The notes under the pieces were generated by a model. That model saw only the letters and a program-made list of their open reading frames with translations, did not search any database and had not been told where the DNA came from. DNA of 64,000 nucleotides from the NCBI GenBank assembly GCA_964544225.1, contig CAZIZK010000001.1, positions 207,477 to 271,476 on the forward strand, in the 5' to 3' direction. Source of the stretch: an uncultured Candidatus Saccharibacteria bacterium. GTDB taxonomy: Bacteria > Patescibacteriota > Minisyncoccia > Phycocordibacterales > UBA9973. This document shows, piece after piece, positions 823 through 19,523 of the stretch (positions within the stretch are counted from its first letter, which is position 1; each line of letters opens with the position of its first letter). Both the position numbers and the translations under genes were made by a program.

Positions 823-1719
823 ATGAACAAGAACTTCTTACCAAGTAAACAATTTTTTAAAAAGGCTGGTGTAATACTTACATTGGTAATTGTTGTGCTA
901 CTCGTCACCCAAGTCACTCCTTCTATAAAAAGTAAGCTACAAAGAGGTAATACTAACAGGCAGTTGTCTGTTAGTGAGCTTGTTGGCCAAGACAGTAATA
1001 ACAATGGTATCCAAGACTGGGAGGAAACACTCTGGGGACTAGACCCGAAAGGTGACGGTTCAGAGAACAAGAACTACATCGTAAATAAAAAGAAGCAATT
1101 AAACAATGGTACTTTGCCAATAGAGGATAGTGCATCACTTACAAACAACGATAAGCTGGCTCGCGAATTCTTCGCTATGATTATATCACTACAGCAGAGT
1201 GGTAACTTGAACGAAGATGCTATTAAAAATATTTCTAACTCTGTTGGTGCTAATGTGGTAGCCGAAGATATAAAAGATATCTATACAAAGGATATGTTAC
1301 GTGTACAGAGCACAACAACAATCACCGTAGGGAGCTACCAAAATGCTATGCAAAAAATAATGAGGAAGTATAGTGGAACTGACATAGGTGATGAGCTGTC
1401 CTTTATAGGCCAAGCAGTAGCAGGCAATGATCCGCAAGTTCTACGTGTTGGAACATCAATAGCAAATTCCTACCGATCACTAGGTAAAGACATAATGACA
1501 GTATCAGTTCCGAGCTCTCTTGCCACAACTCACCTAGAACTTGCAAACAATATGGAGAAAACTGCTCGTTCTCTAGAAAACATGAATAGATTATTGGAAG
1601 ACCCCATGTCTGGTATGACAGCAATAGTTCAGTACAAGAGGTACAATGATGCACTACTTCTAAATATGGAACAAATCCAAACATTTTTTATAAAAAATGG
1701 TATAATAAGTAACAATTAA
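823..1719 (+). CDS. Hypothetical membrane-anchored protein (N-terminal TM helix). First gene of the T4SS-like island.
   Basis: 298-aa ORF with a hydrophobic N-terminal segment (VILTLVIVVLLV). Its stop codon abuts the start of the next gene. No recognisable family. Confidence 0.5.
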   Translation: MNKNFLPSKQFFKKAGVILTLVIVVLLVTQVTPSIKSKLQRGNTNRQLSVSELVGQDSNNNGIQDWEETLWGLDPKGDGSENKNYIVNKKKQLNNGTLPIEDSASLTNNDKLAREFFAMIISLQQSGNLNEDAIKNISNSVGANVVAEDIKDIYTKDMLRVQSTTTITVGSYQNAMQKIMRKYSGTDIGDELSFIGQAVAGNDPQVLRVGTSIANSYRSLGKDIMTVSVPSSLATTHLELANNMEKTARSLENMNRLLEDPMSGMTAIVQYKRYNDALLLNMEQIQTFFIKNGIISNN

Positions 1720-4686
1720 ATGAAGATCAGTAGATACAAAACAATAGTATCAGTCCTGACACTTACCATGTTTGTATTTTCTACTATATTTACACCACTA
1801 GCTTATGCTTTAACAACAGGTACTGATGAAGCTACTACCAACAAAGCTGTATACACAACAGGTAATCCAGCATATACATTTAACATGCAAAACATCTCCA
1901 ATGTGTTGCCAGCTATCGTAGGGTGTACTGGCATAGTAAACAAGGTGAAGAAGTTTATGTTAAATACTTTTGATGGCGGAGCAGGTGTTCTAGAAGATAG
2001 CATTCCAGTATTCAAAGCAGGAACAGGTAACTATAAGGCCGGATATGATGATGGCAATGGAAGTGCTGACCCTGATGGGTTTACTGGTGGATACGCAATA
2101 GAGGCTGTACCGATTAATTCTACACAAGCAAACAAAGATACAAGTAAAATCGATACAAGTACAGAAAAATCTGCAAAAGAAGCTGAACAAAAGAAATTAA
2201 AAGATGAATGTCTAAATGGTGTCGCCTATGCACTAGCAAAAGCTCAGCTAGCATCTATAACAAATAAAACAGTTAATTGGATCAATAGTGGTTTCAATGG
2301 TGACCCATTATTTATACGCGACAGGGAATCATATTTTAAAAGTCTAGGTGACCAAACACTTCAAAGTTTACTTGGTCCGCTTTCAAGTGTTACAAATGCT
2401 ACCATATACCCATTTGGTGCAGACTTTGCAAGAACTGCAATACTTTCGGCTAAGACCAGTTTCCTAGATAGATCCAAATCAACTCTGACCAACTCACTAA
2501 AGCCGGGGGCAACTACTGATAGCTTTGCCACAGACTTCAGCCAGGGTGGGTGGGATGGCTGGTTCTCTCTCACACAAAACCCTCAGAACAACCCTCTGGG
2601 CTTCGGAATACTTGCATCACAAGAGTTAGCTGATAAAACAAATGCAAAAAAACAAGGAGCAAAAGAAGAGTTGGATCAAGGTGACGGATTCCTCTCACAG
2701 AAGAGGTGTGTAGAGTATGCAAAGGTGGATAACGGCACAGACCTAACTACAACTTCATCGAAGAATTATAGTGTTGTGTCGAACGATCCGAACACTCGAT
2801 TAACAGGCTTCTATATCAATACTAATTCTGTGAGCCTGGCTATTAAGTATAATGCGGGGGAGACAGGCACTATGGCTGCCAGTATTACAGATGCATCAGG
2901 TAACTCAAAAGGTGCGCAGACACTAGGTAAAACAAAAAAGGGTGAGAATAATCTAGGCACAACATTCAACAGCTTGTCTGCGTCTTCCTCATACAAGATC
3001 AAGTTTGCATATCAACCAGACGCAGGTAGTGAGAAGGAAATAATAATTATCAATATAACAACCACAGACAAAACTACGGGGAACCAGACACCCGACAGGT
3101 CAACCAATACATCTACCACAAGCACTGCTACTCCTGAATGTGTAAGGTGGGAGACAGTTACCCCAGGTACTGTGATAGCTGACCAGCTAAAGGTAAACTT
3201 GGGTTCATCTGTGCGCCAACTCGAACTTGCTGATAGTCTGAACGAATCACTTAGTGCAGTGTTTGAAGCATTGGTAAACCAGCTTATAAATCAGGGACTA
3301 TCTAGTCTAAGCAAGATAAATAGTGCAAATACTAATGGTCTTGGTGGTGCAGGTAGTAATAAAGTGTATGACACTGGTGGCAATAATGTTTCTGGTAAGT
3401 TATTGTCCGAAGATGGTGCAGGTGTTGGCTTGTCTATAAACAAAGGCACTGGGTGGTATAACGTAAATAATACTTTTGATATTACAAAAGACCTGGGTGA
3501 TACTTATAAAATGGAAAAGGGTAAGAAGGTTGTAATAAAGAAAGGTATCATATCTATACAATCCGACTACATAACTGCCGTAAAAAGCTCTATGAAAGAA
3601 TTGGATCCTATAATACCAGCACTTGGCGAATTGGACTATTGTATACCGGGACCAAATCCAAAGTGGAAGTCTCTCGCTGTACCAAATGTAAACAACACAA
3701 TGGAGATCCTACGAAACATAGAATCAGGGAAGGTAACTCCTAGCCAACTCACTGGATACGGCAAAGCTTTACCATTCCTGAGAAAGTTCAGTCCTGGATT
3801 CAAAATTAGTGAAAATATATATCGTATTACATCTAGTAGAAGACTGGAAAGTGAAGCAAAACAATTAGACCAATCGATACTGGACTCAATATTTGTATCA
3901 GAACTATTGATGAAATTCAATATCAAATTAGTAGGTGATCAGTATATATCTTACCGAAACAAAATGGATGAGTTGTATGGGCCAAACTCACCAATGCGTG
4001 ATGCTACGAGCGAGTGGTACTTGCCTATGGCGGAAGCTGGGTTGAACCTAACAAAGAACTTGATAGCTTATGATCAGAGCATGGGCGAAGTTATAAGTGA
4101 TTACACTAGTCAAATAAACCAAACAAATGCAAATATCTATAAACTAAATCAAATAAAGAAAAAGGTAGATGCTATAGTCCTAGCTGCAAAGAAGAGGCAG
4201 TTGGCTGACATAAGAAGTGGCAAGATAAAATTGAGTCCAGAATGTGCAAACTTGGCCCCACAAGATACAAATGTAGTAAATGGTGGTATATACACAGGCA
4301 ACAATACAGGCACTGGCACAAACACTGGTCCATCAGGTGGTACCACTGTAAAGTTTAAGAGCCCTGTTCCAAACTTTACTGTAACAACAAAAGAGGATTT
4401 GAGTAATTGTACATTTACATTACAAACAAAGAACACTTCTACAGATACTGTTGGACCATACAGGTGGGATATTTCATGGGGTGCACCTGCTTCAACAGGA
4501 GGGGCTACGCCAGAATATTCTATGGCAAAAGATTTAAATATGGGGCTTGTATCAAATGTTCATTATGGTGATATGTCTATAAAGCTAACCATCTCTGATA
4601 TTTTTGGCCAAGATGTAAGTATTACAAAGAAAATATCGACACAAAAAAGAACAAAGACATTATCAGGTGAAGCGTGTCCAAGATAA
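1720..4686 (+). CDS. Large secreted/surface protein (988 aa) with an N-terminal signal peptide. Function unknown.
   Basis: Signal-peptide-like N-terminus (hydrophobic stretch ending ...LAYALTTG), Thr/Asn/Gly-rich composition, and a long uninterrupted ORF translationally coupled to neighbours. Confidence 0.6.
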   Translation: MKISRYKTIVSVLTLTMFVFSTIFTPLAYALTTGTDEATTNKAVYTTGNPAYTFNMQNISNVLPAIVGCTGIVNKVKKFMLNTFDGGAGVLEDSIPVFKAGTGNYKAGYDDGNGSADPDGFTGGYAIEAVPINSTQANKDTSKIDTSTEKSAKEAEQKKLKDECLNGVAYALAKAQLASITNKTVNWINSGFNGDPLFIRDRESYFKSLGDQTLQSLLGPLSSVTNATIYPFGADFARTAILSAKTSFLDRSKSTLTNSLKPGATTDSFATDFSQGGWDGWFSLTQNPQNNPLGFGILASQELADKTNAKKQGAKEELDQGDGFLSQKRCVEYAKVDNGTDLTTTSSKNYSVVSNDPNTRLTGFYINTNSVSLAIKYNAGETGTMAASITDASGNSKGAQTLGKTKKGENNLGTTFNSLSASSSYKIKFAYQPDAGSEKEIIIINITTTDKTTGNQTPDRSTNTSTTSTATPECVRWETVTPGTVIADQLKVNLGSSVRQLELADSLNESLSAVFEALVNQLINQGLSSLSKINSANTNGLGGAGSNKVYDTGGNNVSGKLLSEDGAGVGLSINKGTGWYNVNNTFDITKDLGDTYKMEKGKKVVIKKGIISIQSDYITAVKSSMKELDPIIPALGELDYCIPGPNPKWKSLAVPNVNNTMEILRNIESGKVTPSQLTGYGKALPFLRKFSPGFKISENIYRITSSRRLESEAKQLDQSILDSIFVSELLMKFNIKLVGDQYISYRNKMDELYGPNSPMRDATSEWYLPMAEAGLNLTKNLIAYDQSMGEVISDYTSQINQTNANIYKLNQIKKKVDAIVLAAKKRQLADIRSGKIKLSPECANLAPQDTNVVNGGIYTGNNTGTGTNTGPSGGTTVKFKSPVPNFTVTTKEDLSNCTFTLQTKNTSTDTVGPYRWDISWGAPASTGGATPEYSMAKDLNMGLVSNVHYGDMSIKLTISDIFGQDVSITKKISTQKRTKTLSGEACPR

Positions 4687-4698
4687 TATTATAAAAAT

Positions 4699-6039
4699 AT
4701 GGATAAAAACCCACGAAAAAGTAAAGCTCTCGTAATCACCTTTGTACTAGTACTAGGCCTATTAATAGGTATGTACTTTGTATTTACGAGTGACACCTTG
4801 TTTGGGGTGAACAATAGTGTTGGTAAGAAGTTCTCGCCATTCCTGATAACCCCAAAGGAGAAGGACTTGAACCTAGTAGAGGACCCAAATGCAATCAATA
4901 CAGACAATTCAACAAATACAGATACTGATAATCCGGACAACAATACAAACCCAGATGGTGGCCTTATCGCAGGGGGTAATGACTTCTCGGGTAATGTTGG
5001 TAGTGGTGGTGTAGGCACTGGTATATATATGAACCCGGCTGGTGGGTCAGTTGCCTTACCTGGTGGTAGGGGGACTATAACACCTTCGAACTTCGTAGCA
5101 CAATGTAAGGATGGTAGGGATAATGATGGGGACAGTCTTGTGGATACATCCGACCCAGGCTGTCATACAGATGGTGATGCAACAAATGCAAAAAGTTACA
5201 ACAAGGATCAGTATCTAGAATACAACTTTATACCAGCATGTAGCGACGGAGTAGACAATGATAAAGATAAGCTGATAGATGATAAAGATCCCGGCTGTCA
5301 TAGTGATAACAATGCGAAGAATACAAAGACTTATACACCCAATTACGGATATGAATCCGATAACCAACTGACCAAAGGCAGCTCTTCTGGCGAGTGTACT
5401 GTCGACGACCTGCCACTCATATTTACAGCAGAGGAACAGGCACAGCTCGATGAGCTGACTCGCCAGTTCTACCGCCTAGCACCAACACTGAAATCAATAG
5501 ATGATATATTAGTAGAAGAAAAAGCAAGACAAAGCTATATAGACATAACAGATAATGCAAACACTCTGACAAATGAATGTTACGAGCAAACATACAATGA
5601 TAAATACTTGGCAAACAGTGGTGTTGTTATAACAGAAGGACATGAGCAATTAAATACACGATTTGATCATAAAGAACAAAAAACGCCTTATACTGGTGAC
5701 ACGAAAGTATCAATAGACACAATGGTGCCTTATTTGTGGGATAATAACAAAACATTATTAACTGGAATGCCCGGACTAAACAATGCTACACAAATCCCTA
5801 TATATGATTATGCAAGCAAGAGCTGGATTAACAAGGGTAGGACAGAAAGACGAGGGAACCCTTATATTGATTTAAAACCAACATCTTCCTACTGGCAAAT
5901 ATATGAAACCAAAACAAATGCAAAGAATGGGGACAACGGTGTATATGTAAACCATCGTGGTGATGTATGGAACAATACTCCGATAGGTAATGCTTACTTC
6001 CCTTGGGCTGATTGGGAAAATATGATGGGTATATGGTAG
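4699..6039 (+). CDS. Membrane-anchored protein with two Cys-flanked Asp-rich repeats (C-x-DG-x-DND-x-D...DPGCH), putatively calcium-binding and thrombospondin-type-3-like.
   Basis: N-terminal TM helix. Duplicated motif CKDGRDNDGDSLVDTSDPGCH / CSDGVDNDKDKLIDDKDPGCH. Confidence 0.5.
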   Translation: MDKNPRKSKALVITFVLVLGLLIGMYFVFTSDTLFGVNNSVGKKFSPFLITPKEKDLNLVEDPNAINTDNSTNTDTDNPDNNTNPDGGLIAGGNDFSGNVGSGGVGTGIYMNPAGGSVALPGGRGTITPSNFVAQCKDGRDNDGDSLVDTSDPGCHTDGDATNAKSYNKDQYLEYNFIPACSDGVDNDKDKLIDDKDPGCHSDNNAKNTKTYTPNYGYESDNQLTKGSSSGECTVDDLPLIFTAEEQAQLDELTRQFYRLAPTLKSIDDILVEEKARQSYIDITDNANTLTNECYEQTYNDKYLANSGVVITEGHEQLNTRFDHKEQKTPYTGDTKVSIDTMVPYLWDNNKTLLTGMPGLNNATQIPIYDYASKSWINKGRTERRGNPYIDLKPTSSYWQIYETKTNAKNGDNGVYVNHRGDVWNNTPIGNAYFPWADWENMMGIW

Positions 6040-6115
6040 TTATAAACAACGCGTTATAAAAACGCGTTGTTTATGTATAGTAACAGCAAGCTTGAAATGC
6101 TATAATATTTAAAGC

Positions 6116-8878
6116 GTGAAGAAATTCTTGCCATACATTTTAATACTAGTTGTTGTCGTGAACCTCCTCGCGCCATTTAGTGTTGTATGGAAGGATAATC
6201 AACTCCCAAAAATCGCAAAGAATGAAGCAAAGGCAGAAGCTAACCGTTTTCCTGGAAGTAGTATTAAAACAAATGACATGTTGTCTGGGGGTGTTGACGG
6301 ACAATCTGTTAGTATTGATTTCGAAATAATACTAGATACTGGGTTAAAAAGTGGAGATGATACATCTGGTATATGGGATGATATACAACATGTAGGAGTA
6401 TGGAACCCGCTTACTACAAATAGTTTTGATGAGAAATCTTTTTGGTTAGAAATAATAAAAGCAGACTCAACAACTGTTATACCTGATACTTATATTGTTT
6501 CAGATAGTAATTTGGCAAACGATGGTTATGTAAGTTTAACTCGTCCATTATTAGGGAATAAGGTTGGTAACAATCTGGGGCAAGACTGGATAGATAGTTA
6601 TCCAAACGGGCCATCTAAAATTAAAATAGATTATCTAATTGGAAATAAAAGTCAGGGGTATCCTATTGATACTATAGATAATTTAAAACCTGATACAGAA
6701 TATTTAGCTAGGGTAATATACTACTTAGATGGTAATGCTGTACCTAACACGATGGCAGAAGTACGTTTTAAAACACCTGCTCCAACAAAACTTGAAGGGA
6801 AAATTGGTGATGGTAAAACATTAGTAGAGGGGGGTAAATTATTATTACCAGGATGTGAGATAATACCAGACTTTGATGACGGGACGAGCTTCTCTGGATG
6901 TTTTGTGCAGTTAGCTTATTGGGGTTTATATGCTCCGACTGCATATTTGTTTGGTTTAGCTGGAGTATTTTTTGATGCTGTTTTTAAATATTCAATAGAT
7001 GATTCCTCTTATAGAACTACATTTGTTACCCAAGGTTGGGCTATTGTACGTGATATGTGTAATATATTCTTCATATTTGTACTACTATATGCTGCATTCA
7101 AAATGATATTTGGTTCACACGGTGCTAAATCTGTAATTGTTAATGTGATAATTATAGGCTTGTTAATAAACTTTAGTCTACTAACAACCCAAATATTAGT
7201 AGACACTTCAAATATTCTAGCTAGGTTATTTTACAATTCACAAGCAATAAAAATAGAAACAGACAATGCATCTGGGGCTGTAACACACGGGGGACAAAAT
7301 TTAACTGAAAATTCAGGTAATAATCAGATATCTCTTTCATCTGCATTAATAAATAAAATAAACCCGCAGAACCTAATCCTCAGTGCTAGTAAAGTAACTG
7401 TTTCAGACGATGCTGGTCACACTGGTACAGCTTCTGCAACAGACGGGATAGGTGTAGGAGGATACTTCTTAGTAATATTTTTAGCCTCTATAGTAAACGT
7501 AATCGGCTTCTTTGTATTTATATCAGTTGGTTTAATATTTGTGGCCCGAGTTGTTAGTATTTGGATGGCTATGGTATTTGCACCCTTTGCATTCTTTAGT
7601 TATACAGTACCAGCACTTTCGAAAGCAAAAATTATCGGTTGGAAGAACTGGTGGAGTGACTTACTAGGTATTTGTTTTATTGCCCCACTATTCATGTTCT
7701 TTATGTATTTAATAATATTATTCCTAGAAAAAGGATTTGCGAACTTTCTTGATAGTACAAAGAATGGACCAAACTTCGTATTGGGTATCATTATTCCTTT
7801 TGCTTTCATTATGATTTTGCTTTTGACTGCAAAGAAGTTAGCAAAAGAATACGCAGGCTCTATTGGTCAAACTGTTACCGGTGCGGTAACAGCGGTCGGA
7901 GCAGCAGCACTCGGTGGTGCAGCGTTGGGTGCAGCAGTAATAGGAAGAAATACTGTTGGGTCTCTTGCAAAATTTACACAAAATGACGGTGCGAGAAAAA
8001 ATGCCTTAACATATCAAAATACGCAAAATGCGGCAGCTAAATTAAAAGGTTGGGGTGCAGTAAATCCATTTAATTATCTTAAGGTAGCAGGAAGTGCTGT
8101 AGGAGATACAGTAAAACTACCTGCGGCAAGTGCTGGTTATTTAGCTTCTAGGATTGGAAGAAAGAAAGATCCGCATACAGGGAAAGAAACAAGCTGGTTC
8201 CAAAGAGAGGGTTCAAAAGTTGTGGATAAAAGTCATGCAGCACATGTACTTGATGAAAAAGCACAAGCATTGAAAAATGATAAATCAGCTACATATAAAG
8301 ATCTTACTGATGATGAAAAGAAAACTGTACGTGAAAGAATAGACAGAGATATCGTATCCAAAGAAATGCATAATAAAGTGTATGAAAAACTTAATGGAAC
8401 AGAAAGAGCTAATGTCGATGGCATGAGAGTAGCAGGAGATCCAAATGGTGAGTGGTCTCAGGGAGCAAATATGGCAAAAGGTGTTGCCGCTACTAGAGGT
8501 GATCATGTTCACACTTCAGAAGATTTGGGTAAGGCAGTAAAAGTAGATACTGCTGTAAGTGAGTTTGTAAATGCACTGAGAAAAGGTAGTTATGATGTAA
8601 GAAATCTATCAAAAACAAAATCAGTAAGTGGTGGTTTAGCAAAACTAGGAGTTGGCCTTGCTGCATCTGTTGCATTAGGTGTTAGATCGGGTCTTAAATC
8701 ACTGGTTGGTATTAACCATGGAACAGGTCAAAAAGATGTCATGAAAGACTTAAAGGATGTTTTAACAGAAGCATTGAAGGGTGTGAAAATTCAGATGCCT
8801 AGTGGGGGAGGTGACCATGGAGGAGGGCATGATGATCACGGTGGTGGGCACGATGACCATGGTGGAGGGCATCATTAG
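6116..8878 (+). CDS. VirB6/TrbL-like polytopic inner-membrane T4SS channel protein (920 aa) with a large N-terminal extracytoplasmic domain and a C-terminal hydrophilic tail ending in a His-rich repeat.
   Basis: Multiple central hydrophobic helices (AYWGLYAPTAYLFGLAGVFF..., IFFIFVLLYAAF..., VIIIGLLINFSLL..., YFLVIFLASIVNVIGFFVFISVGLIF..., etc.). C-terminus is GGGDHGGGHDDHGGGHDDHGGGHH. Sits beside a VirB4 ATPase gene. Confidence 0.5.
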   Translation: MKKFLPYILILVVVVNLLAPFSVVWKDNQLPKIAKNEAKAEANRFPGSSIKTNDMLSGGVDGQSVSIDFEIILDTGLKSGDDTSGIWDDIQHVGVWNPLTTNSFDEKSFWLEIIKADSTTVIPDTYIVSDSNLANDGYVSLTRPLLGNKVGNNLGQDWIDSYPNGPSKIKIDYLIGNKSQGYPIDTIDNLKPDTEYLARVIYYLDGNAVPNTMAEVRFKTPAPTKLEGKIGDGKTLVEGGKLLLPGCEIIPDFDDGTSFSGCFVQLAYWGLYAPTAYLFGLAGVFFDAVFKYSIDDSSYRTTFVTQGWAIVRDMCNIFFIFVLLYAAFKMIFGSHGAKSVIVNVIIIGLLINFSLLTTQILVDTSNILARLFYNSQAIKIETDNASGAVTHGGQNLTENSGNNQISLSSALINKINPQNLILSASKVTVSDDAGHTGTASATDGIGVGGYFLVIFLASIVNVIGFFVFISVGLIFVARVVSIWMAMVFAPFAFFSYTVPALSKAKIIGWKNWWSDLLGICFIAPLFMFFMYLIILFLEKGFANFLDSTKNGPNFVLGIIIPFAFIMILLLTAKKLAKEYAGSIGQTVTGAVTAVGAAALGGAALGAAVIGRNTVGSLAKFTQNDGARKNALTYQNTQNAAAKLKGWGAVNPFNYLKVAGSAVGDTVKLPAASAGYLASRIGRKKDPHTGKETSWFQREGSKVVDKSHAAHVLDEKAQALKNDKSATYKDLTDDEKKTVRERIDRDIVSKEMHNKVYEKLNGTERANVDGMRVAGDPNGEWSQGANMAKGVAATRGDHVHTSEDLGKAVKVDTAVSEFVNALRKGSYDVRNLSKTKSVSGGLAKLGVGLAASVALGVRSGLKSLVGINHGTGQKDVMKDLKDVLTEALKGVKIQMPSGGGDHGGGHDDHGGGHDDHGGGHH

Positions 8879-8914
8879 ATAAATTAATTACGAATTAATA
8901 ATTACGAATTACGA

Positions 8915-10162: not shown

Positions 10163-10200
10163 ACATTAAAATCCCCACAATATGTGGGGATTTTAATGTT
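10162..10200 (+). terminator. Perfect 18-bp inverted repeat hairpin (aacattaaaatccccaca / tgtggggattttaatgtt) immediately after the stop of the 8915..10162 gene.
   Basis: Read directly: the reverse complement of the left arm equals the right arm, with a 3-nt loop. Only a weak U-tract follows. Confidence 0.5.
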
Positions 10201-10211
10201 ATAATATTTAT

Positions 10212-10613
10212 ATGCAATTTAAAGTTCCACAATTTATCGACATAGAGGACAAGTTATTTGGTCCTTTTACATTCAAGCAATTTACCTATCTGGCCGGAGG
10301 TGGGGGTTTGGTATATGTATTGTATAAATTGTTGCCTATATATCTAGCTATCCCACTGATCATACCGGTTGCAATACTAGCAGGATTGCTAACATTCTAC
10401 AAAATAAATGGCAAACCCTTCCTTTACTACCTACAAGCAAGTATTACATACGCGGTAAAGAGCAAGCTGTATGTATGGAAGCAACGTTTGGAAAAACCAG
10501 AAATGAAGAAAGAGGTTCCCAGCTTGCCCAACCAGACATCTGTTGTGCCTACGCTTTCAGGTAGCAGACTAAAGGATTTATCGTGGAGCCTCGATGTTCT
10601 GGATAAAAAGTAA
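10212..10613 (+). CDS. Small two-TM membrane protein, PrgI/VirB3-like (T4SS inner-membrane component).
   Basis: 133 aa with two hydrophobic helices (LAGGGGLVYVLYKLLPIYLAIPLIIPVAILAGLLTF). Sits immediately upstream of VirB4-like genes, as in Gram-positive T4SS operons. Confidence 0.4.
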   Translation: MQFKVPQFIDIEDKLFGPFTFKQFTYLAGGGGLVYVLYKLLPIYLAIPLIIPVAILAGLLTFYKINGKPFLYYLQASITYAVKSKLYVWKQRLEKPEMKKEVPSLPNQTSVVPTLSGSRLKDLSWSLDVLDKK

Positions 10614-10658
10614 TTTCCCACTTATAAATTAAACCTTTTACATGTTACAATAAATATT

Positions 10659-11306
10659 ATGGCTCTGGATGCAAGAAGATCACAAGAATTTGTTCCAATA
10701 AAAGAAGTTCGCGATGGTATCATTATTTTAAAAGATGGTGGGCTTCGTGCTGTATTGGTAGCTTCTTCTATCAACCTATCTCTAAAGTCTAGCGACGAAC
10801 AGAAGGCGGTTATAGCCAACTTTCAAAACTTTCTAAACGGGCTCGACTTTTCTATACAGATAGTGGTCCAGTCACGTAGGCTCGATATCCGCCCTTATCT
10901 ACTAACTCTAGAAGAGAGGATGAAAGTCCAAGTAGAACCCCTGATCAAGATCCAGACAAAGGAATATATGGACTTTATCCAATCTTTTACAAATGAAGTA
11001 AACATTATGACAAAGAGCTTCTTTGTAGTGGTGCCATATAGTGGTAGTACATTTAAATCCGACGAGAGTATTGTCGAGAAGGTGTTAGATATGAAGAAGG
11101 CAAAGAAGGGTAGCACAAAGAAAGAGGAGGACCTAGCAAGTTTCGAGGAGAAGAGGTCACAATTGGACCAGCGTATTGCTATGATAAGCCAGGGTTTGGG
11201 TGGGTTTGGAGTTCGTAGTTCACAGCTTGGCACAGAGGAGATAATCGAGATGTTCTACAAGACATTCAACCCCGGTGATATTAGTCAGGGTATTAAATTA
11301 GAATAA
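10659..11306 (+). CDS. VirB4 N-terminal-domain-like protein (215 aa). Possibly the N-terminal fragment of a split VirB4.
   Basis: Pattern DGIIILKDGGLRAVLVASSINLSLKSSDEQKAVIANFQNFLNGLDFSIQIVVQSRRLD resembles the N-terminal region of Gram-positive VirB4/TraE-type proteins. It ends 7 nt before, and in a different frame from, the VirB4 ATPase ORF. Confidence 0.4.
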   Translation: MALDARRSQEFVPIKEVRDGIIILKDGGLRAVLVASSINLSLKSSDEQKAVIANFQNFLNGLDFSIQIVVQSRRLDIRPYLLTLEERMKVQVEPLIKIQTKEYMDFIQSFTNEVNIMTKSFFVVVPYSGSTFKSDESIVEKVLDMKKAKKGSTKKEEDLASFEEKRSQLDQRIAMISQGLGGFGVRSSQLGTEEIIEMFYKTFNPGDISQGIKLE

Positions 11307-11313
11307 TTATTAT

Positions 11314-13149
11314 ATGGGAATATTTTCATCAATTTTTGGCTCAAAGAAGACTGACACACCACAAGGCCGTGTTGTTTTACCTGTACTACCAAATGAAATA
11401 TACCAGGCGGCCACACTCGAACTCCAAGACATCATAGCCCCATCTGCGTTACAAATCAGTCCTAAATCACTGAACCTAGGCGACAAGATATCTCGCACAT
11501 TCTTCGTCATATCATACCCACGATACCTAACCGACAACTGGTTCTCACCAATCATTAACCTCGACAAGATATTCGATGTTTCTATATTTATACACCCTAT
11601 CGATACTGGGGAAATACTCCGCTCTTTCCAAAAGAAGGTGGCCGAAGTACAAAGTCAGATATCTATCCGTGAATCAAAAGGCCTCGTTCGTGACCCAATG
11701 CTAGACACTGCATACGGCGACCTCGAGGAACTTCGCAACAACCTGATGCAAGCCCAGGAAAAGATGTTCGATGTAGGCCTATATATCACTATCTATGCTG
11801 ATAATGAAGGCGAATTGTACAAAGCCGAAAACGAGATCAAATCACTACTAGAATCAAAGCTTATATATCTAAAGCCTGCACTTTTCCAACAAGAGGAGGC
11901 TTTTAAAAGTGCTATACCTACAGGCACCGACCTGCTAGAGATAGGGCAGAAATTAAATACTGAACCCCTTTCAAGCGTCTTTCCTTTTGTATCGTTCGAC
12001 CTTACTTCCGACAAGGGCATACTTTATGGAGTAAATAGGCATAACTCGAGCCTTATAATATTTGACCGTTTCTCACTACCAAACTATAACTCTATAACAT
12101 TTGCTACATCTGGTGCTGGTAAGTCATACGCTACAAAGCTCGAGATTATTCGTACACTCATGTTCGATACAGAAGTAATAGTTATCGACCCAGAAAGGGA
12201 GTACGAGTTCCTCGCTGAAGCTGTGGGTGGTAGGTATTTCAATATTGCCCTTTCTTCCGAGCACCATATCAACCCATTTGACCTACCGATACCTAGTGAG
12301 GATGAGACAGGTGCGGATGTCCTACGTTCCAACACTATCAACCTCGTAGGCCTATTCCGCATAATGCTCGGAGGACTAACTCCTGAGGAGGATTCCATTA
12401 TAGACCGTGCTATCACCGAAACATACGCACTCAAAGACATCACAGCCGAGAGCGACTTCCGTAACATCGAACCACCACTGTTGTCCGACTTCGAGATGGT
12501 TTTAGCCGGTATGGAGGGTAGCGAATCTGTAATACAAAGGCTTACTAAATACACTCGTGGAAGCTGGGCATCGTTCCTGAACCAGCCTTCAAATGTAGAT
12601 ATCAATAGGAAGTTCGTAGTGTTCTCAGTGCGCGACATGGAGGACGAGTTGAAGCCAGTAGCCATGTATATAGTCACACACTATATATGGAACGCGATAA
12701 GGAAGAACATAAAGAAACGTCTATTGGTGGTGGACGAGGCTTGGTGGATGATGAAGTCCGAGGACACAGCATCATTCCTATACTCTATAGCAAAGCGTGG
12801 CCGTAAATACTATCTGGGCCTTGCAACTATAACCCAAGACGTAGGCGACTTTATGAAGAGCCCGTATGGTATACCTATAGTTACCAACTCTTCACTCCAG
12901 TTACTACTGAAGCAGTCACCGTCAACTGTGGACCTATTGCAAAAGACTTTCAACCTAACCGATGAGGAGAAGTACCTACTGCTAGAAGCAAATGTAGGGG
13001 AGGGTATATTCTTTGCAGGACTCAAACACGTAGCGGTTAAAACTATCGCATCATATACCGAGGACCAGATCATTACATCTGACCCTTCGCAGATACTAGC
13101 TATAAAGAAGGCAAAGGATGATCTACTTTCGAACGAAACAGGGGCTTAA
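11314..13149 (+). CDS. virB4: Type IV secretion system ATPase, VirB4/TraE/TrsE family.
   Basis: Walker A FATSGAGKSYATK; Walker B LLVVDEAWWMM (the DEAW motif characteristic of VirB4). A CagE/TrbE-like region lies upstream of the P-loop. 611 aa. Confidence 0.8.
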   Translation: MGIFSSIFGSKKTDTPQGRVVLPVLPNEIYQAATLELQDIIAPSALQISPKSLNLGDKISRTFFVISYPRYLTDNWFSPIINLDKIFDVSIFIHPIDTGEILRSFQKKVAEVQSQISIRESKGLVRDPMLDTAYGDLEELRNNLMQAQEKMFDVGLYITIYADNEGELYKAENEIKSLLESKLIYLKPALFQQEEAFKSAIPTGTDLLEIGQKLNTEPLSSVFPFVSFDLTSDKGILYGVNRHNSSLIIFDRFSLPNYNSITFATSGAGKSYATKLEIIRTLMFDTEVIVIDPEREYEFLAEAVGGRYFNIALSSEHHINPFDLPIPSEDETGADVLRSNTINLVGLFRIMLGGLTPEEDSIIDRAITETYALKDITAESDFRNIEPPLLSDFEMVLAGMEGSESVIQRLTKYTRGSWASFLNQPSNVDINRKFVVFSVRDMEDELKPVAMYIVTHYIWNAIRKNIKKRLLVVDEAWWMMKSEDTASFLYSIAKRGRKYYLGLATITQDVGDFMKSPYGIPIVTNSSLQLLLKQSPSTVDLLQKTFNLTDEEKYLLLEANVGEGIFFAGLKHVAVKTIASYTEDQIITSDPSQILAIKKAKDDLLSNETGA

Positions 13150-13188
13150 TTAATTGTTTAGAACCTTTAATTATCGTATAATATAGTA

Positions 13189-14178
13189 GTGAAAAAAAGG
13201 TTGCTACAACTTACACTATTAATACTTATCCTAGTAAGTATTATGCCTATGTCTATAAATGCCGAGGCTCTTCAGGTAACATCTGCAGATATAAATATCG
13301 AGACAATACCCGACAACCCACAGCCCTATACTGACGTAACTATGACTATCACAAGTTATGCAACCGACCTAAATAAGGCCCTAATAACATGGAAGAGTGG
13401 TGACGACACTATACTATCGGGTATTGGTCGTACTAAATACGTTTTTAAAACAGGTGCTCCAAATATCAATACTTCCTTTACAGTATCTATAACACCAGCA
13501 GGGAGCTTTGCTTCTGTTGAAAAGAGCTTTGTAATCAGCCCTTCGGAGGTAGAGATGCTGTGGCAAGCCATTGACTCTTATACACCACCATTCTATAAGG
13601 GCAAGAGCTTCCCCACATCTGAGGGGTCAGTGCGTATTGTAGCTATGCCAAACACTGTGGGTATATCTAGTGGTAGTAACAAAAGTATGGCGTACTATTG
13701 GAAGCTGAACTACGATAGCGCCCAGGATGCATCGGGGTATGGCAAGGATTCCTTTACCTACAAGAACAGTTATCTAAATGATACCGATCATATTGGGGTA
13801 TCGGTATCTACAACCAATGGTTCCTACACAGGCAATGGCACAATAGACATACCTATGTACAATCCAGAGATGATCTTCTACAAGAAGTCTCCAACTGAAG
13901 GTATAAAGTACAACGAGGCTGTAACAGGCGAAGTCTACATGAATGAGGACGAGATGACTCTTGTAGCGGAGCCATACTTCCTAAACAATTCAAACGGTAC
14001 AAATGATCTAACTTATAAATGGAAGATAAACAACAACGACATCAGTACACCACGCAACCCTCGCGAACTGACAGTCCGCCCTACATCACGTGGGGGATAC
14101 GCCAACATAAATATTTCTATAAGTAGTATTAGTAAACTATTCCAAAACATTAATAAGTCTATAAAAATTAATCTGTAA
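13189..14178 (+). CDS. Secreted hypothetical protein (signal peptide) in the T4SS-like island.
   Basis: N-terminal MKKRLLQLTLLILILVSIMPMSINAEA signal. 329-aa ORF. Confidence 0.5.
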   Translation: MKKRLLQLTLLILILVSIMPMSINAEALQVTSADINIETIPDNPQPYTDVTMTITSYATDLNKALITWKSGDDTILSGIGRTKYVFKTGAPNINTSFTVSITPAGSFASVEKSFVISPSEVEMLWQAIDSYTPPFYKGKSFPTSEGSVRIVAMPNTVGISSGSNKSMAYYWKLNYDSAQDASGYGKDSFTYKNSYLNDTDHIGVSVSTTNGSYTGNGTIDIPMYNPEMIFYKKSPTEGIKYNEAVTGEVYMNEDEMTLVAEPYFLNNSNGTNDLTYKWKINNNDISTPRNPRELTVRPTSRGGYANINISISSISKLFQNINKSIKINL

Positions 14179-14183
14179 AAATA

Positions 14184-14611
14184 ATTAATGAAAAAAATAT
14201 TATTAATAATATTTATAGCAATAGCATTTTTAGGAAATTTTAATATTTCAAGTGCTGAATTCTTGGACCCTATACAAACACAAGCTGTACAAGAAGACTA
14301 TAGTTTATTGGCACCAATTCCAGGTGTAAATAAAATAGATAATACGAATACACTAGGCACATATCTTAACTTTTTCTTTAAATTCGCTATATCTGTGTGT
14401 GCTGGATTGGCAGTACTTATGATAGTTATATACGGGGTACAGTATATGGGAGATGGGTCAGTATTTGGCCATACAGAAGCAAAGAGTAAAATAGGTTCTG
14501 CTATTATGGGATTATTGTTAGCACTTGGTGCATATGCACTACTAAATACTATTAACCCAGATCTGGTGGGGAGTAATGGTATAAAGATTAAACAGGTGAC
14601 GATAAAACTCC
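14184..14611. repeat. Direct repeat copy 1 (~428 bp, 100% identical to 15100..15527). It covers the 5' 141 codons of the first hydrolase-like gene plus 4 bp upstream.
   Basis: Nucleotide-by-nucleotide comparison of the two segments in the sequence shows no difference. Divergence begins right after ...gtgacgataa. Confidence 0.85.
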
Positions 14612-15099
14612 AGTCGATGGATATCCCTCAAGAAGTACAAAAAGATGGAACATATGTTGGAACAACTTATAAAAAGGGTGAAATTTGGCCAGACGATCAA
14701 AAAACAAGAGATGACTTAAAAAAAATAAATATTTCAGTTTCTCCAACAAAATGCACAACAGTAGGACAAAGTGGTTGTACAACTGTTTACGGATTAAACA
14801 CTGCTTTTGTTTCAAAGTTAAAAACAACTTGCCCAACTTGTGATATAACCATAACAGAAGGTACTGGATTTTGGAAACACATAGCTAATGTGTATAAAAT
14901 ACATTATCCGGGTGGGTGGACTGTAGACATGCGTCAAACAACAACACTTTCTACATTTATACACTCAAAACCAAAAACTCCTTTTAGTTGGGGAATTTGT
15001 TATGATATTGGTAATGGTTTAGGTATAGTGGAAGAAAAAGACCATTTCCATGCATTTAGCTTAACAGGTGGATGTAATACTTCTAAGCAAGGTGTTTAA
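14188..15099 (+). CDS. Membrane-anchored putative peptidoglycan peptidase (LAS/M15-like zinc peptidase signature). N-terminus has a signal peptide plus two hydrophobic helices, i.e. VirB2/TrbC-pilin-like topology.
   Basis: The N-terminal 141 aa are shared identically with the next gene. The C-terminal domain has H-x7-D (IHYPGGWTVD) and HxH (DHFHAF) spacings reminiscent of LAS-family D,D/L,D-peptidases. Tentative. Confidence 0.5.
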   Translation: MKKILLIIFIAIAFLGNFNISSAEFLDPIQTQAVQEDYSLLAPIPGVNKIDNTNTLGTYLNFFFKFAISVCAGLAVLMIVIYGVQYMGDGSVFGHTEAKSKIGSAIMGLLLALGAYALLNTINPDLVGSNGIKIKQVTIKLQSMDIPQEVQKDGTYVGTTYKKGEIWPDDQKTRDDLKKINISVSPTKCTTVGQSGCTTVYGLNTAFVSKLKTTCPTCDITITEGTGFWKHIANVYKIHYPGGWTVDMRQTTTLSTFIHSKPKTPFSWGICYDIGNGLGIVEEKDHFHAFSLTGGCNTSKQGV

Positions 15100-15527
15100 T
15101 AATATGAAAAAAATATTATTAATAATATTTATAGCAATAGCATTTTTAGGAAATTTTAATATTTCAAGTGCTGAATTCTTGGACCCTATACAAACACAAG
15201 CTGTACAAGAAGACTATAGTTTATTGGCACCAATTCCAGGTGTAAATAAAATAGATAATACGAATACACTAGGCACATATCTTAACTTTTTCTTTAAATT
15301 CGCTATATCTGTGTGTGCTGGATTGGCAGTACTTATGATAGTTATATACGGGGTACAGTATATGGGAGATGGGTCAGTATTTGGCCATACAGAAGCAAAG
15401 AGTAAAATAGGTTCTGCTATTATGGGATTATTGTTAGCACTTGGTGCATATGCACTACTAAATACTATTAACCCAGATCTGGTGGGGAGTAATGGTATAA
15501 AGATTAAACAGGTGACGATAACTCTTT
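15100..15527. repeat. Direct repeat copy 2 (~428 bp, 100% identical to 14184..14611).
   Basis: See copy 1. Confidence 0.85.
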
Positions 15528-16213
15528 CTCCAGGTCAACAATACAGATTGTCTGAAACCCAAGCCACAACAAAAAAGTTTGCTAGGACTAAATACTATGA
15601 CACAATAAAAGCAACTGCTGCAAAAAAGGAGTACAACATTCCACACTGTTTGTTGCAAGTTGCAATACAAAGAGAGTCTGGTGGGGTAGCAGGTTTAGTT
15701 GGTCACGACGAAGAAGCTCCTGCTTTTGGTATCCCGTCCAGAAAGAATTTTGTAAATTCAGGTAAAAAGTATAGCGGGACAACATTTACATCTAGCCAAT
15801 CATTAATAACAGACAGGGGGTTCCATAACGACGATCATAAGGGAAATAATTTATTCTCTGCTTCCAAGCCAACAGCTGTTGATTTAGGGTTGGATTGGCG
15901 ATATTCACATGCAATAGGTATGTTTGGGGTAACATTTTACCCAGCAGGGGAAAGTTATGGTGATTATACTAAAGGTATATATATGGTAATATTAAAAAAG
16001 ACAGTCTTCCCAAAAGATTTGTTTAATACTAATACAGATATATTAGTAGCTGCTGAAATGATGAGTAGTAACTACAAACTTTGTAATAATAATGTGGAGC
16101 AAACATATAGGAAATATGGCTCTGGTCGTTGTGATGGGAGTAATGCATTTACTAATGTAGAAGCCCCTCTTAGAAAGAATTTATACGATCAGTGCGTAGC
16201 TCAAGATAAATAA
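15104..16213 (+). CDS. Membrane-anchored putative lytic transglycosylase (VirB1/SLT-like) sharing its N-terminal module with the preceding gene.
   Basis: Identical N-terminal 141 aa. C-terminal region IQRESGG...AIGMFGV resembles the SLT catalytic Glu and GLMQ-type motifs. The ORF-track start at 15068 is an upstream extension; the true start is inferred at the conserved MKKILL (15104). Confidence 0.5.
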   Translation: MKKILLIIFIAIAFLGNFNISSAEFLDPIQTQAVQEDYSLLAPIPGVNKIDNTNTLGTYLNFFFKFAISVCAGLAVLMIVIYGVQYMGDGSVFGHTEAKSKIGSAIMGLLLALGAYALLNTINPDLVGSNGIKIKQVTITLSPGQQYRLSETQATTKKFARTKYYDTIKATAAKKEYNIPHCLLQVAIQRESGGVAGLVGHDEEAPAFGIPSRKNFVNSGKKYSGTTFTSSQSLITDRGFHNDDHKGNNLFSASKPTAVDLGLDWRYSHAIGMFGVTFYPAGESYGDYTKGIYMVILKKTVFPKDLFNTNTDILVAAEMMSSNYKLCNNNVEQTYRKYGSGRCDGSNAFTNVEAPLRKNLYDQCVAQDK

Positions 16214-16214
16214 A

Positions 16215-17537
16215 ATGAAAAAAACAATTATCATTATAATACTTATACTAGCCACCGCAGGTGGGACACTTTGGTATATACAAAGTAAACAAGCTACAAA
16301 TAATACGAGTACCACTGACACTGGTACAGGATTTTTGAAATCTTTCTTTTCTTTCAATCAAAACAATACTTCAAACACAACAACTGATACTAACAGTACA
16401 GATGGCACAGGCACTGATACGGAAACAGGGGATGCAACAGATACCGAAACACCAAATACCACAAATACTAATAAACTTGTTCAAGTAACTGACTTTCCAA
16501 TATCAGGCCTTGCTAGCTTTATCGACACACGCCCTCTACCAGAAAGTGCTATCCCAGTAACAACTACACCAGTAAAAGATGCAAAGGGTAAGATTGTGCA
16601 GGCAAAAGTTATAGCCCCATCAGTCGAATCTGTATCTGCATTACGATATGCAGCCCGTGCAAATGGCCATATATATAGCCAGTACCTAGACACTGGTGCA
16701 AGTGCAAAGATATCTAACGCAACCATTCCAAGTATTTACGAAACATATTTCGGTGACAATGGTAAGGCTGTGGTGTATAGATACCTAAACAACAACGACC
16801 AAACTATCCAAACATTTCTAACACATACCGATGGGTCAAAGGGTGACTTTCTTCAGGAAGATATCTCTGGTATTGCAATATCACCAGACAGTAATTCACT
16901 CTTCTACCTGGCACCGCTTGGTAGTAATGTGGCAGGGTACTATATGAACTTTAAAGACAACAACAAGATACAGGTATTCACATCTGCATTTACCGAGTGG
17001 CTACCACAGTGGGCAGGGACTTCTACTATATTCCTAACTACAAAGCCTTCTTGGGACACTGTAGGCTCTATATACGCTACAAATATTGGGAAGAACAACT
17101 TTATAAAAGTATTTAGTGGGTTAAAAGGTTTAACGACTCTTGCATCTAATAATGCAGCCAATATCCTATATAGCAGTACTTCCAATATTGGCCCCGAGCT
17201 CGGTGTATACAATATCGACAAGCATGAGTTCACAAAGCTACCTGTAAGAACACTCGCAGACAAATGCGTATGGAGTCGTGATGGAGTACGTGCATATTGT
17301 GCAAAGCCAAATAATATAGAGGGTAATAAGTACCCAGACAATTGGTACAAAGGAATCGTGTCATTTAATGACAGTATTATATCTATAGACACTGCTAACA
17401 AATCATACTCTACTTTAGTAAATACAGAAGATGTACAAGCAATAGATGCGATCAACCTAACACTTTCCCAAGACGAGAAGATATTGTTCTTCTTAAACAA
17501 AAAAGACTCCACAATGTGGAGGCTAGACCTAGAATAG
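16215..17537 (+). CDS. Membrane-anchored protein with a Thr/Asp-rich linker and a possible beta-propeller (TolB/PD40-like) C-terminal region.
   Basis: N-terminal TM (IIIIILILATAGGTLWY), low-complexity TDT repeats, and recurring SPD/SRDG-type motifs. Weak assignment. Confidence 0.45.
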   Translation: MKKTIIIIILILATAGGTLWYIQSKQATNNTSTTDTGTGFLKSFFSFNQNNTSNTTTDTNSTDGTGTDTETGDATDTETPNTTNTNKLVQVTDFPISGLASFIDTRPLPESAIPVTTTPVKDAKGKIVQAKVIAPSVESVSALRYAARANGHIYSQYLDTGASAKISNATIPSIYETYFGDNGKAVVYRYLNNNDQTIQTFLTHTDGSKGDFLQEDISGIAISPDSNSLFYLAPLGSNVAGYYMNFKDNNKIQVFTSAFTEWLPQWAGTSTIFLTTKPSWDTVGSIYATNIGKNNFIKVFSGLKGLTTLASNNAANILYSSTSNIGPELGVYNIDKHEFTKLPVRTLADKCVWSRDGVRAYCAKPNNIEGNKYPDNWYKGIVSFNDSIISIDTANKSYSTLVNTEDVQAIDAINLTLSQDEKILFFLNKKDSTMWRLDLE

Positions 17538-17545
17538 GGGATAGA

Positions 17546-17577
17546 AAAAGAGGAGACTAAATCTCCTCTTTTTCTTT
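17546..17577. terminator. Bidirectional hairpin (aaaaagaggagactaaatctcctcttttt) between convergent genes.
   Basis: GC-rich stem flanked by A/T runs on both sides, between the 16215..17537(+) gene and the 3' end of jag(-). Confidence 0.55.
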
Positions 17578-18024
17578 GTATTTAATTACTACGTGTCTAC
17601 CTGGGCCCATACCTGCTGACTCTGTAACAATGTCTGGAATATTCTCTAGAAACATATGCACAATACGGCGTTCGTATGCTGGCATTGGCTCGAGCTCTAC
17701 ACTGTTCTTGAAATACCTTGCTCGCTCAGCTAGCATATGTGCTGTGGTCTTTAGGCTGTCGAAGCGCTTCTTATTATAACCATTTATATCTATCATTAAC
17801 ATTCCGGCTTCATCTTCGGATACAGTCTTCTCTATCATCTTACGGACAAGGTGGTTGAGTGATCGTAGGGTCTCACCCTCACGGCCAATCATGTATCGTG
17901 AGTCAGGTGTAGATATGGAACACCATATCATGGAACCCTCATCGGTAAATTCACAGGATGTGAGGGTACACGCTGTGTGTTTGAATATATCCTCTATTAT
18001 ATTTTTTATATAATCTTTATCCAT
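17557..18024 (-). CDS. khpB: Jag/KhpB RNA-binding protein (KH + R3H domains).
   Basis: GREGETLRSLNHLV (KH-like) and ERRIVHMFL...ESAGMGPGRHVVI (R3H). Canonical position next to yidC. Confidence 0.8.
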   Translation of the reverse strand: MDKDYIKNIIEDIFKHTACTLTSCEFTDEGSMIWCSISTPDSRYMIGREGETLRSLNHLVRKMIEKTVSEDEAGMLMIDINGYNKKRFDSLKTTAHMLAERARYFKNSVELEPMPAYERRIVHMFLENIPDIVTESAGMGPGRHVVIKYKEKEEI

Positions 18025-19382: not shown

Positions 19383-19523
19383 CTATTTTGAGACTGTGAG
19401 TTTTGCACGACCCTTTTGGCGTCGACGAGCAAGTATCTTGTTACCACCAGCTGTCTTTGTACGAGTCAGGAAGCCGTGAGTCTTTGCTCTTTTTCTTTTG
19501 TTTGGTTGGTATGTTTGAGACAT
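19383..19523 (-). CDS. rpmH: 50S ribosomal protein L34.
   Basis: [46 protein letters not shown]. The ORF-track start at 19574 is an upstream extension; the real start is at the MSQ Met. Confidence 0.9.

Follow-up and report, generated by a model that had tools for sequence, protein, structure and literature searches.

A probable Patescibacteria-clade type IV secretion locus with pilin-enzyme fusion genes beside dnaA in an uncultured bacterium

The block and its genes

We analysed a stretch of 64,000 nucleotides (64 kb, hereafter the window) from an uncultured Candidatus Saccharibacteria bacterium (contig CAZIZK010000001.1 of assembly GCA_964544225.1, positions 207,477 to 271,476 of the forward strand), in which a block at 823-17537 encodes components of a type IV secretion system (T4SS). 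This block holds 12 open reading frames (ORFs), all co-directional on the plus strand; since neighbouring genes are never more than 77 bp apart, there is no space for the 13th gene counted in an earlier, sequence-only reading of this DNA. With its flanks, and with unnamed genes given by the length of their product in amino acids (aa), the gene order is ksgA - 298 - 988 - (446) - 920 - 415 - prgI - trsD - virB4 - 329 - pilin fusion - 440 - jag - yidC - rnpA - dnaA - dnaN. Every ORF of the block and 20 other ORFs of the window were scanned with Pfam and NCBIfam. A scan of one genome per species yielded at least 591 relatives of the VirB4 protein, of which the best 80 loci (L001-L080, 75-97% VirB4 identity) were compared with the window; all of them are metagenome-assembled genomes (MAGs) from the candidate phyla radiation (CPR) labelled Paceibacteria, Nomurabacteria or Parcubacteria, including RAAC4_OD1_1. 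An identical block is present in two independent assemblies from unrelated sequencing runs (L081, Logan SRR13208906; L082, SRR26856460), and the assembly of the locus is sound. One of these two assemblies has a UvrD-type helicase upstream of ksgA, and its contig ends within the pilin repeat described below.

The gene at 11314-13149 (+) encodes a VirB4-family T4SS ATPase, as its DEAW Walker B motif had led the earlier reading to propose. It exceeds the curated cutoff of NCBIfam NF045971, the CD1110-type VirB4 (E=1.3e-111, 374 bits against 325), and that of Pfam P-loop_TraG (PF19044; E=1e-24, 87 bits against 25.8), and it carries a Walker A (ATSGAGKS) and a Walker B (VVDEAWW) motif. The closest curated NCBIfam relatives are the CD1110 family, the Mbov_0397 family of integrative conjugative elements (ICEs) and TrsD of pGO1/pSK41. 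Every named protein among the best 120 database matches (87-100% identity) belongs to Paceibacterota, Nomurabacteria or Patescibacteria; judged by these best matches, and with all 80 loci being CPR MAGs, the ATPase groups with Patescibacteria homologues. Ahead of it lies the gene of a 215-aa TrsD/TraD-like protein (10659-11306, +; NF041427 E=3.6e-8, TraC-like PF26593). Because the CD1110 VirB4 model is divided between these neighbouring genes, the TrsD-like ORF aligning to positions 2-120 and the VirB4 gene to positions 183-732, the smaller ORF is, by its place on the profile, the VirB4 N-terminal domain as a separate gene, as in pGO1-type systems. The split is kept in at least 77 of the loci, and a frameshift as its cause was rejected, since 77 TrsD ORFs in relatives are complete, at 209-234 aa. 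The next gene upstream (10212-10613, +) encodes a small membrane protein of the PrgI/VirB3 family, the assignment already made for it, which passes the gathering score of PF12666 (E=6.2e-11, 43 bits against 27). TrsD-like and PrgI/VirB3 genes accompany virB4 in 79 and 75 of the 80 loci, respectively; in L027 (8873-9923) prgI and trsD lie on the strand opposite to virB4, the sole clear local inversion among the 80.

The 920-aa polytopic membrane protein (6116-8878, +) is a candidate 'extended' VirB6, judged by its topology, by the place of its gene and by a weak match in fold. A variable extracytoplasmic N-terminal domain leads into a transmembrane (TM) core at residues ~255-600, after which come a C-terminal region that is helical and a tail rich in Gly and His; the protein has about 7 hydrophobic helices and a layout shared with the 'extended VirB6' of PMC12857230; the gene lies upstream of prgI in 66 of the 80 loci. 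An AlphaFold2 model computed from an alignment of 36 sequences is confident in the TM core (predicted local distance difference test, pLDDT, 70-90 at ~255-600; overall mean 61). When this model was compared with 350,542 PDB chains by Foldseek, the only matches with a probability above 0.5 were to TrwI/VirB6 of R388: 8rt9_F (probability 0.85, target-normalised TM-score 0.49, E 0.65) and 8rtd_L (probability 0.60). Precomputed PF19590 tags on a few homologues proved irreproducible even at E=10. Additionally, a profile search with the family returned 14,219 clusters at 50% identity, and among the 150 closest clusters listed there was no bridge to annotated VirB6/TrbL proteins. Of the earlier VirB6/TrbL-like call, therefore, the polytopic topology and gene position stand and the R388 fold match speaks weakly for it, while every sequence-profile search went against it; we consider the protein likely but not demonstrated to be VirB6-like. 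Its C-terminus (8800-8878) forms a Gly/His/Asp-rich tail (GGGDHGGGHDDHGGGHDDHGGGHH) with a G..G-H-H ending that is almost invariant among 36 homologues, and this tail may bind metal on the cytoplasmic side.

Six further proteins are accessory and more divergent, with median identities to the window of 27-40% across related loci. At the start of the block, a 298-aa membrane-anchored protein (823-1719, +; N-terminal TM at residues 17-35) carries a calcium-binding-like acidic motif, D-x-D-x-DG..DWEE..G.DP, after the TM segment, followed by a domain that looks helical by sequence; it has no Pfam or NCBIfam match, and all that a PDB profile search brought up was a weak match to the acidic motif. 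A homologue occupies the same position in 38 related loci, at a median identity of 27%. It is followed by a 988-aa anchored or secreted multidomain protein (1720-4686, +), present in 52 of the 80 loci, with an N-terminal TM segment or signal, a conserved helical core and two beta-sandwiches resembling immunoglobulin (Ig), FN3 or PKD domains at ~350-450 and ~885-975. This protein has no Pfam or NCBIfam match either, and its 77 homologues are all hypothetical. The suggestion that the giant surface proteins might be adhesins or pilus tips found no support in the 988-aa protein, the one of them modelled: in its AlphaFold2 model (mean pLDDT 64.5) Foldseek found generic Ig/FN3-like beta-sandwich domains only (E ~5e-4) and no adhesin, pilus-tip or VirB5-like fold. 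The 446-aa anchored protein (4699-6039, +; TM at residues 11-29) is a variable accessory gene product, detected in only 11 of the 80 loci; the calcium-binding-like repeats ascribed to it are indeed present as two acidic double-disulfide repeats (NF033662 E=8.6e-15).

Between the 920-aa gene and prgI, a 415-aa protein (8915-10162, +) consists of a tandem-duplicated helical domain of ~90 aa (27% identity over 91 aa, E=2e-15) and a Pro-rich low-complexity tail. The duplication had been noticed correctly; the protein had also been listed as secreted or anchored, and that part fell, since we find neither a signal peptide nor a TM segment and the protein is probably cytoplasmic. Its homologues, in 48 of the 80 loci, vary greatly in length (132-438 aa). 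Downstream of virB4 lies the gene of a 329-aa secreted all-beta protein (13189-14178, +), probably with three Ig-like domains, which is present in 78 of the 80 loci and mostly directly follows virB4; an inserted ORF or a swapped order interrupts this adjacency in a few loci (e.g. L007, L070, L077). Some of its relatives show weak Ig/PKD matches. The last gene of the block (16215-17537, +) encodes a 440-aa anchored protein with a TM segment, a linker rich in Thr and Asn and a C-terminal domain of ~330 aa, which is conserved and may be a beta-propeller; it is found in 68 of the 80 loci, and of 41 relatives 4 have a PG_binding_1 and 2 a weak PD40 match. Neither the 329-aa nor the 440-aa protein has a PDB sequence match or Pfam relatives.

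Two hairpins accompany these genes. One, at 10162-10200 between the 415-aa gene and prgI, has a perfect 18-bp stem (AACATTAAAATCCCCACA / TGTGGGGATTTTAATGTT) and is terminator- or attenuator-like; it could mean that the block is transcribed as two units. The other, terminator-like with a 14-bp stem, lies at 17543-17575 between the convergent 440-aa gene and jag and marks the end of the block.

Pilin-enzyme fusion genes

Between the 329-aa and 440-aa genes stand two genes whose products, of 303 aa (14188-15099, +) and 369 aa (15104-16213, +), share one signal peptide and one hairpin of TM segments (residues 66-84 and 102-120) and differ in the C-terminal domain attached to it. Both had been noticed as anchored, peptidoglycan hydrolase-like proteins. 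They are real, and their anchor can now be recognised, by profile matches, as a VirB2/TrbC-like pilin hairpin. In the window itself the matches to T4SS_pilin (PF18895) are weak (E=8.7e-4 and 1.3e-3) and stay below the gathering score (19.8 and 19.2 bits against 26.6); the assignment is made because 68 of 76 positional homologues match PF18895 (best E=9e-10) and 19 match TrbC/VirB2, and it is through these homologues that the cluster has a VirB2-like pilin domain. No free-standing pilin gene is present in the window. By analogy with the VirB2 topology (N-out, C-out), the enzyme domains would lie outside the membrane. The C-terminal domain of the 369-aa protein appears weakly lytic-transglycosylase-like (VirB1-like), on a weak SLT match (PF01464; E=9e-3; 16 bits, with the cutoff at 21.3) and a 'QRESGG' catalytic-Glu context in its sequence. 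That of the 303-aa protein has four invariant Cys and the pattern H..H-x7-D...H-x-H, likewise invariant, in nine homologues; it has no Pfam match and no significant PDB profile match, and is a putative LAS/M15-like zinc peptidase.

The first 139 codons of the two genes form a perfect direct repeat of 418 bp (copy 1, 14188-14605; copy 2, 15104-15521, +), which begins exactly at both ATGs (14188 and 15104) and stops just past the pilin hairpin; beyond this point the sequences are unrelated. An assembly artefact was considered and rejected: the sequences upstream differ from position -1, four other MAGs are alike, and the L081 assembly breaks at window position 14217, inside the repeat.

The position between the 329-aa and 440-aa homologues was compared across L001-L080. 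One pilin-module gene is found here in 66 species, and two in 5 species and in the window. The encoded proteins range from 140 to 774 aa, the depth of the module within the protein varies, and some carry N-terminal Ig, TIG or FN3 domains. The fused domains comprise NlpC/P60 (16), VanY (8), Amidase_5 (7), SLT/SLT_2 (7), YkuD (5), Peptidase_M15_4 (3), CHAP (2), Amidase_2 and 3D, besides several unknown types, and the C-terminal parts of 72 pilin-module proteins fall into 25 mutually unrelated clusters. On a neighbour-joining tree of VirB4 the enzyme types are scattered almost at random, with 42 changes needed, where the minimum is 24 and shuffling gives a mean of 47.8 (shuffled minimum 42). Indeed, the nearest relative (L001, VirB4 97% identical) has a single 484-aa gene in which both the N-terminal and the C-terminal domain are different. 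In all five two-gene genomes 395-820 bp of module DNA are 99-100% identical between the paralogues, and four of them (L017, L050, L064, L066) show the same two-gene pattern as the window; between species, module DNA reaches at most 79.4% identity in 191 pairs. This pattern indicates recombination anchored on the module, by gene conversion or by repeated cassette replacement.

How should such an arrangement be understood? The pattern of a constant module with exchanged enzymes is observed directly, and the recombination mechanism and host targeting are our suggestions. We think it quite possible, while stopping short of calling it probable, that the pilin hairpin is a constant carrier or docking module at whose boundary unrelated wall-enzyme domains are swapped, with gene conversion homogenising the tandem copies; the fusions would then constitute a polymorphic, cassette-like effector arm of the T4SS, plausibly matched to the host's peptidoglycan chemotype. 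The target could be the cell's own wall, as in a VirB1 role, the host wall, or both, and the sequence is compatible with each. Alternatively, the fusions may be housekeeping enzymes in the VirB1 role, opening the cell's own wall for assembly of the machine, and their diversity may be functional redundancy. This has a fair amount in its favour, given that monoderm T4SSs have VirB1-type hydrolases that vary and consist of several domains, that in principle any bond-cleaving activity could make the gap, and that the neighbouring 440-aa protein has a peptidoglycan-binding domain in some relatives. On the other side stand the near-random distribution of enzyme types on the VirB4 tree and the YkuD domains among the fusions, which are L,D-transpeptidases and not hydrolases. 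Neither point is decisive, and we would give the housekeeping role a little less than an even chance; the scatter and the YkuD domains look more like diversifying replacement than neutral redundancy.

Conservation, mobility and function of the locus

The block is flanked upstream by ksgA (28-774) and downstream by jag (17557-18024), yidC (18038-18799), rnpA (19051-19380) and rpmH (within 19383-19574), all four on the minus strand, and then by dnaA (19634-20980, +) and dnaN (21195-22292, +); three DnaA-box-like sites, one of them perfect, lie at 20982-21140 in the dnaA/dnaN spacer. These genes and sites agree with the placement beside the origin region made in the sequence-only reading. The order ksgA-[block]-jag-yidC-rnpA-dnaA-dnaN recurs in relatives: both ends are visible in 24 of the 80 loci, with spans of 13.1-17.7 kb; dnaA is reached in 51 of the 57 loci with sufficient downstream sequence; and ksgA is found upstream in 31 of the 50 loci that hold the full 10 kb on that side, and was undetected in the rest. 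A check of synteny against CPR loci, which that reading had called for, thus gives a block whose position and order are fixed across related Paceibacteria. Moreover, VirB4 is better conserved than DnaA, DnaN, YidC or KsgA, with median identities to the window of 80% for VirB4, 64.5% for DnaA, 60% for TrsD, 56% for DnaN, 52% for YidC, 51% for PrgI and 50% for KsgA, and VirB4 identity exceeds that of DnaA in every related locus. Should oriC lie in the spacer between dnaA and dnaN, transcription of the 17-kb block would run towards the origin, head-on to replication; its orientation relative to dnaA-dnaN is kept in relatives.

The absence of VirD4, relaxase, VirB11 and integrase that had been noted for the window was borne out over its 64 kb, where the Pfam and NCBIfam scans found no type IV coupling protein (T4CP)/VirD4, relaxase, VirB11-type ATPase or integrase/recombinase, and the only P-loop proteins are VirB4, DnaA, RuvB, the type IV pilus ATPase PilB and a Pif1 helicase. 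There are no att-like repeats flanking the block, only short AT-rich chance matches, and no tRNA gene of the window lies nearer to it than 39 kb. The G+C content of the block (0.35-0.43) is the same as that of the flanks and the rest of the window, with no compositional step. A relaxase or T4CP together with flanking att sites, which would have spoken for a plain ICE, was therefore not encountered in the window, and the wider marks of a conjugative element (relaxase and T4CP; integrase, att sites, tRNA) are missing from the 64 kb, and variable presence is not seen, the position of the block being fixed in relatives. What was found is the combination typical of the Patescibacteria clade, a chromosomal locus near dnaA, dnaN, rnpA and ksgA without a relaxase, the last point being established for the window. 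With its order recurring and its VirB4 better conserved than DnaA, the block is a fixed core locus and not an ICE. The composition had been argued to speak against a classical conjugative element and for a chromosomally fixed apparatus, and conserved order, the conservation of VirB4 above DnaA and the lack of mobility marks all point the same way.

We conclude that the block is very probably a chromosomal 'Patescibacteria clade' T4SS locus, derived from MPF_FATA and of monoderm type, in the typical Paceibacteria/Nomurabacteria-like arrangement and belonging to the vertically inherited core. In such a machine, the VirB4 hexamer would be docked by PrgI and the 920-aa VirB6-like protein to form a minimal translocon of the cytoplasmic membrane. 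The pilin-anchored enzymes might open the peptidoglycan at the machine, on either side of the contact or on both, and the Ig-like and anchored accessory proteins (298, 988, 329 and 440 aa) could build or decorate an extracellular part at the site of host contact. The substrate may be protein or host-derived macromolecules rather than conjugative DNA. This functional proposal leans by analogy on Saccharibacteria, in which a homologous cluster is essential for epibiotic growth.

Several points weigh against this picture. The 920-aa protein matches no VirB6, TrbL or PrgH profile (Pfam and NCBIfam, Pfam on 36 homologues singly, and a PDB profile search), and no Foldseek match of its model, the best TrwI/VirB6 hit included, is significant by E-value. 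No VirB8-like protein was recognised, as no block ORF matches VirB8, PrgL or TcpC in Pfam or NCBIfam, and 6 of 12 block proteins have no assignable function. The absence of a coupling protein and a relaxase covers the 64-kb window, and T4CP homologues occur in most Patescibacteria genomes (PMC12102498). The conservation ranking is biased somewhat towards VirB4, since the loci were picked by VirB4 similarity. The cumulative GC skew climbs throughout the window, without a minimum at dnaA, so that proximity to the origin is read from gene context and DnaA boxes only. Finally, the role of the T4SS even in Saccharibacteria has been called 'completely unknown' (PMC11665869).

As to what the machine might do instead, it could work in the uptake direction, as ComB- or Ced-like systems do, and bring in DNA, nucleotides or other macromolecules of the host through the zone of contact. 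Such uptake has been proposed to meet the nucleotide needs of Patescibacteria (PMC11665869, PMC12857230), the ATPase is weakly similar to the archaeal DNA importers CedB (E=1.9e-7) and CedD (E=0.022), and wall-cutting enzymes on a pilin module would suit the breach of a host wall. However, the Ced matches span the P-loop region only and are far under the cutoffs (30 bits against 700), the block has no DNA-binding or ComEC-type component, and the direction of transport cannot be read from sequence; we consider an uptake machine unlikely, if worth keeping in mind.

It seems improbable to us that the block still serves conjugation or DNA export, in partnership with a T4CP and an unrecognised relaxase encoded elsewhere on the chromosome. 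There is room for it in that 5,713 VirD4-like T4CP homologues are known from 2,918 Patescibacteria genomes, almost all of them at a distance from virB4 (PMC12102498), and in that the examined part of the present genome is 64 kb only. Relaxases, however, were found in only 103 of 3,035 genomes (PMC12102498), in S. epibionticum the T4SS genes are essential but the T4CP homologue is not (PMC12102498, PMC10633639), and a conjugation system would not be expected to outdo DnaA in conservation. An ICE or its decayed remnant, an island near the origin that has lost relaxase, T4CP and integrase, we reject on synteny and conservation as highly improbable: the closest curated relatives of VirB4 are indeed conjugative ATPases of monoderm ICEs and plasmids, and a horizontal ancestral acquisition has been proposed (PMC12102498), but dozens of species share the position and order, VirB4 surpasses DnaA in conservation, no integrase, att-like repeat, adjacent tRNA or G+C step is seen, and any acquisition would be an ancient one going back to the clade's root, not that of a recent island.

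Related systems, other genes of the window and implications

The T4SS locus as such is already known, having been described between 2023 and 2025, and the window holds a typical Paceibacteria member, not a novel type of system. Wang et al. (2023; PMC10633639) reported an essential T4SS in Southlakia epibionticum that is similar to monoderm conjugative systems, has pilin genes and lacks a recognisable coupling protein or relaxase. In a survey of 3,035 genomes, Quinonero-Coronel et al. (2025; PMC12102498) described a monophyletic Patescibacteria VirB4 clade within MPF_FATA. Close to virB4 they found TrsD, PrgI, VirB6, VirB1 and VirB2-like pilins; relaxases turned up in no more than 103 genomes, T4CP homologues in the majority but distant from virB4; and the Paceibacteria neighbourhood holds dnaA, dnaN, rnpA, ksgA and rpmH. 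A review treats the Patescibacteria systems as a recognised T4SS type (FEMS, 2025; PMC12857230). The view of the block as a fixed, non-conjugative apparatus of a small-genome episymbiont, put forward before any database search, agrees with the first two of these studies.

The window shows no essential difference from the Patescibacteria-clade T4SS of PMC12102498 and is an instance of it, with VirB4, TrsD, PrgI/VirB3, a VirB6-like protein, a VirB2-like pilin and VirB1-like enzymes, no relaxase and no nearby T4CP, in the vicinity of the origin genes. What we did not find in that study is a pilin domain that occurs solely as enzyme fusions, with swappable C-terminal domains and a module identical between paralogues. 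The T4SS of S. epibionticum ML1 (SEML1_0006-0019; PMC10633639), the only member with functional data, is likewise built of monoderm-type subunits with in-cluster pilin genes, peptidase and lysozyme genes downstream of virB4, and no recognisable coupling protein or relaxase. It differs in belonging to the class Saccharimonadia, in having ~6 small, free-standing, divergent pilins where one or two pilin-enzyme fusions are found here, and in accessory genes that are not comparable by sequence. With the conjugative T4SSs of MPF_FATA (pGO1/pSK41 Trs, pCF10 Prg, CTn2/CD1110-type ICEs) the block shares a VirB4 above the CD1110 cutoff, PrgI and in-operon wall hydrolases, and with pGO1 a separate TrsD gene ahead of VirB4. 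Unlike them it is chromosomally fixed, lacks a T4CP of the PcfC/TrsK type, a relaxase, an oriT and a PrgB-type adhesin in the window, and has VirB2-like pilin domains, which those systems do not. By analogy, the fusions also recall polymorphic toxins (CdiA-CT, Rhs), in which a constant N-terminal trafficking part is followed by exchangeable C-terminal enzymes, with a sharp identity breakpoint and tandem alternative copies. In contrast to these, no immunity genes were identified, the enzymes act on the wall and are not cytotoxic nucleases, each of the two copies is a complete gene, and a T4SS pilin hairpin serves as carrier. Interchangeable enzyme domains on a pilin module, and the identity of that module between paralogues, were not found in PMC12102498, PMC10633639, PMC12857230 or PMC11665869 and are apparently undescribed.

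Outside the block, the window carries type IV pilus genes. PilB (28442-30142, -; T2SSE E=3e-116) has an MshEN domain, and at 49620-52144 (+) PilM (PF11104) is followed by three small single-TM ORFs (50727-52144), which are read as PilN/O-like by position only. Beside pilB lie the genes of two secreted proteins, at 30295-31452 (385 aa, without a family match) and 31573-34161 (862 aa, with FN3/DUF11-type domains), which may be further surface proteins. Three paralogues of ~560-610 aa (45084-46832, 46729-48555 and 61879-63555) have the N-terminal zinc-ribbon motif CQNCKNDF.IEP.DF.FYDK..VP.PT.C..CR, with weak treble-clef zinc-finger Pfam matches only.

The Patescibacteria T4SS is among the few machines shown to be essential for an epibiotic lifestyle (functional data in PMC10633639), and in this lineage the locus is as conserved as the neighbouring replication genes; most of its genes (those for the 298-, 988-, 415-, 329- and 440-aa proteins) encode proteins without an assignable fold or family. 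The pilin fusions offer a concrete entry point for testing what this machine is in contact with. Should the enzyme type follow the cell-wall chemistry of the host, this would speak for the host wall as a target, and the fusions might help to predict the hosts of uncultured Paceibacteria.

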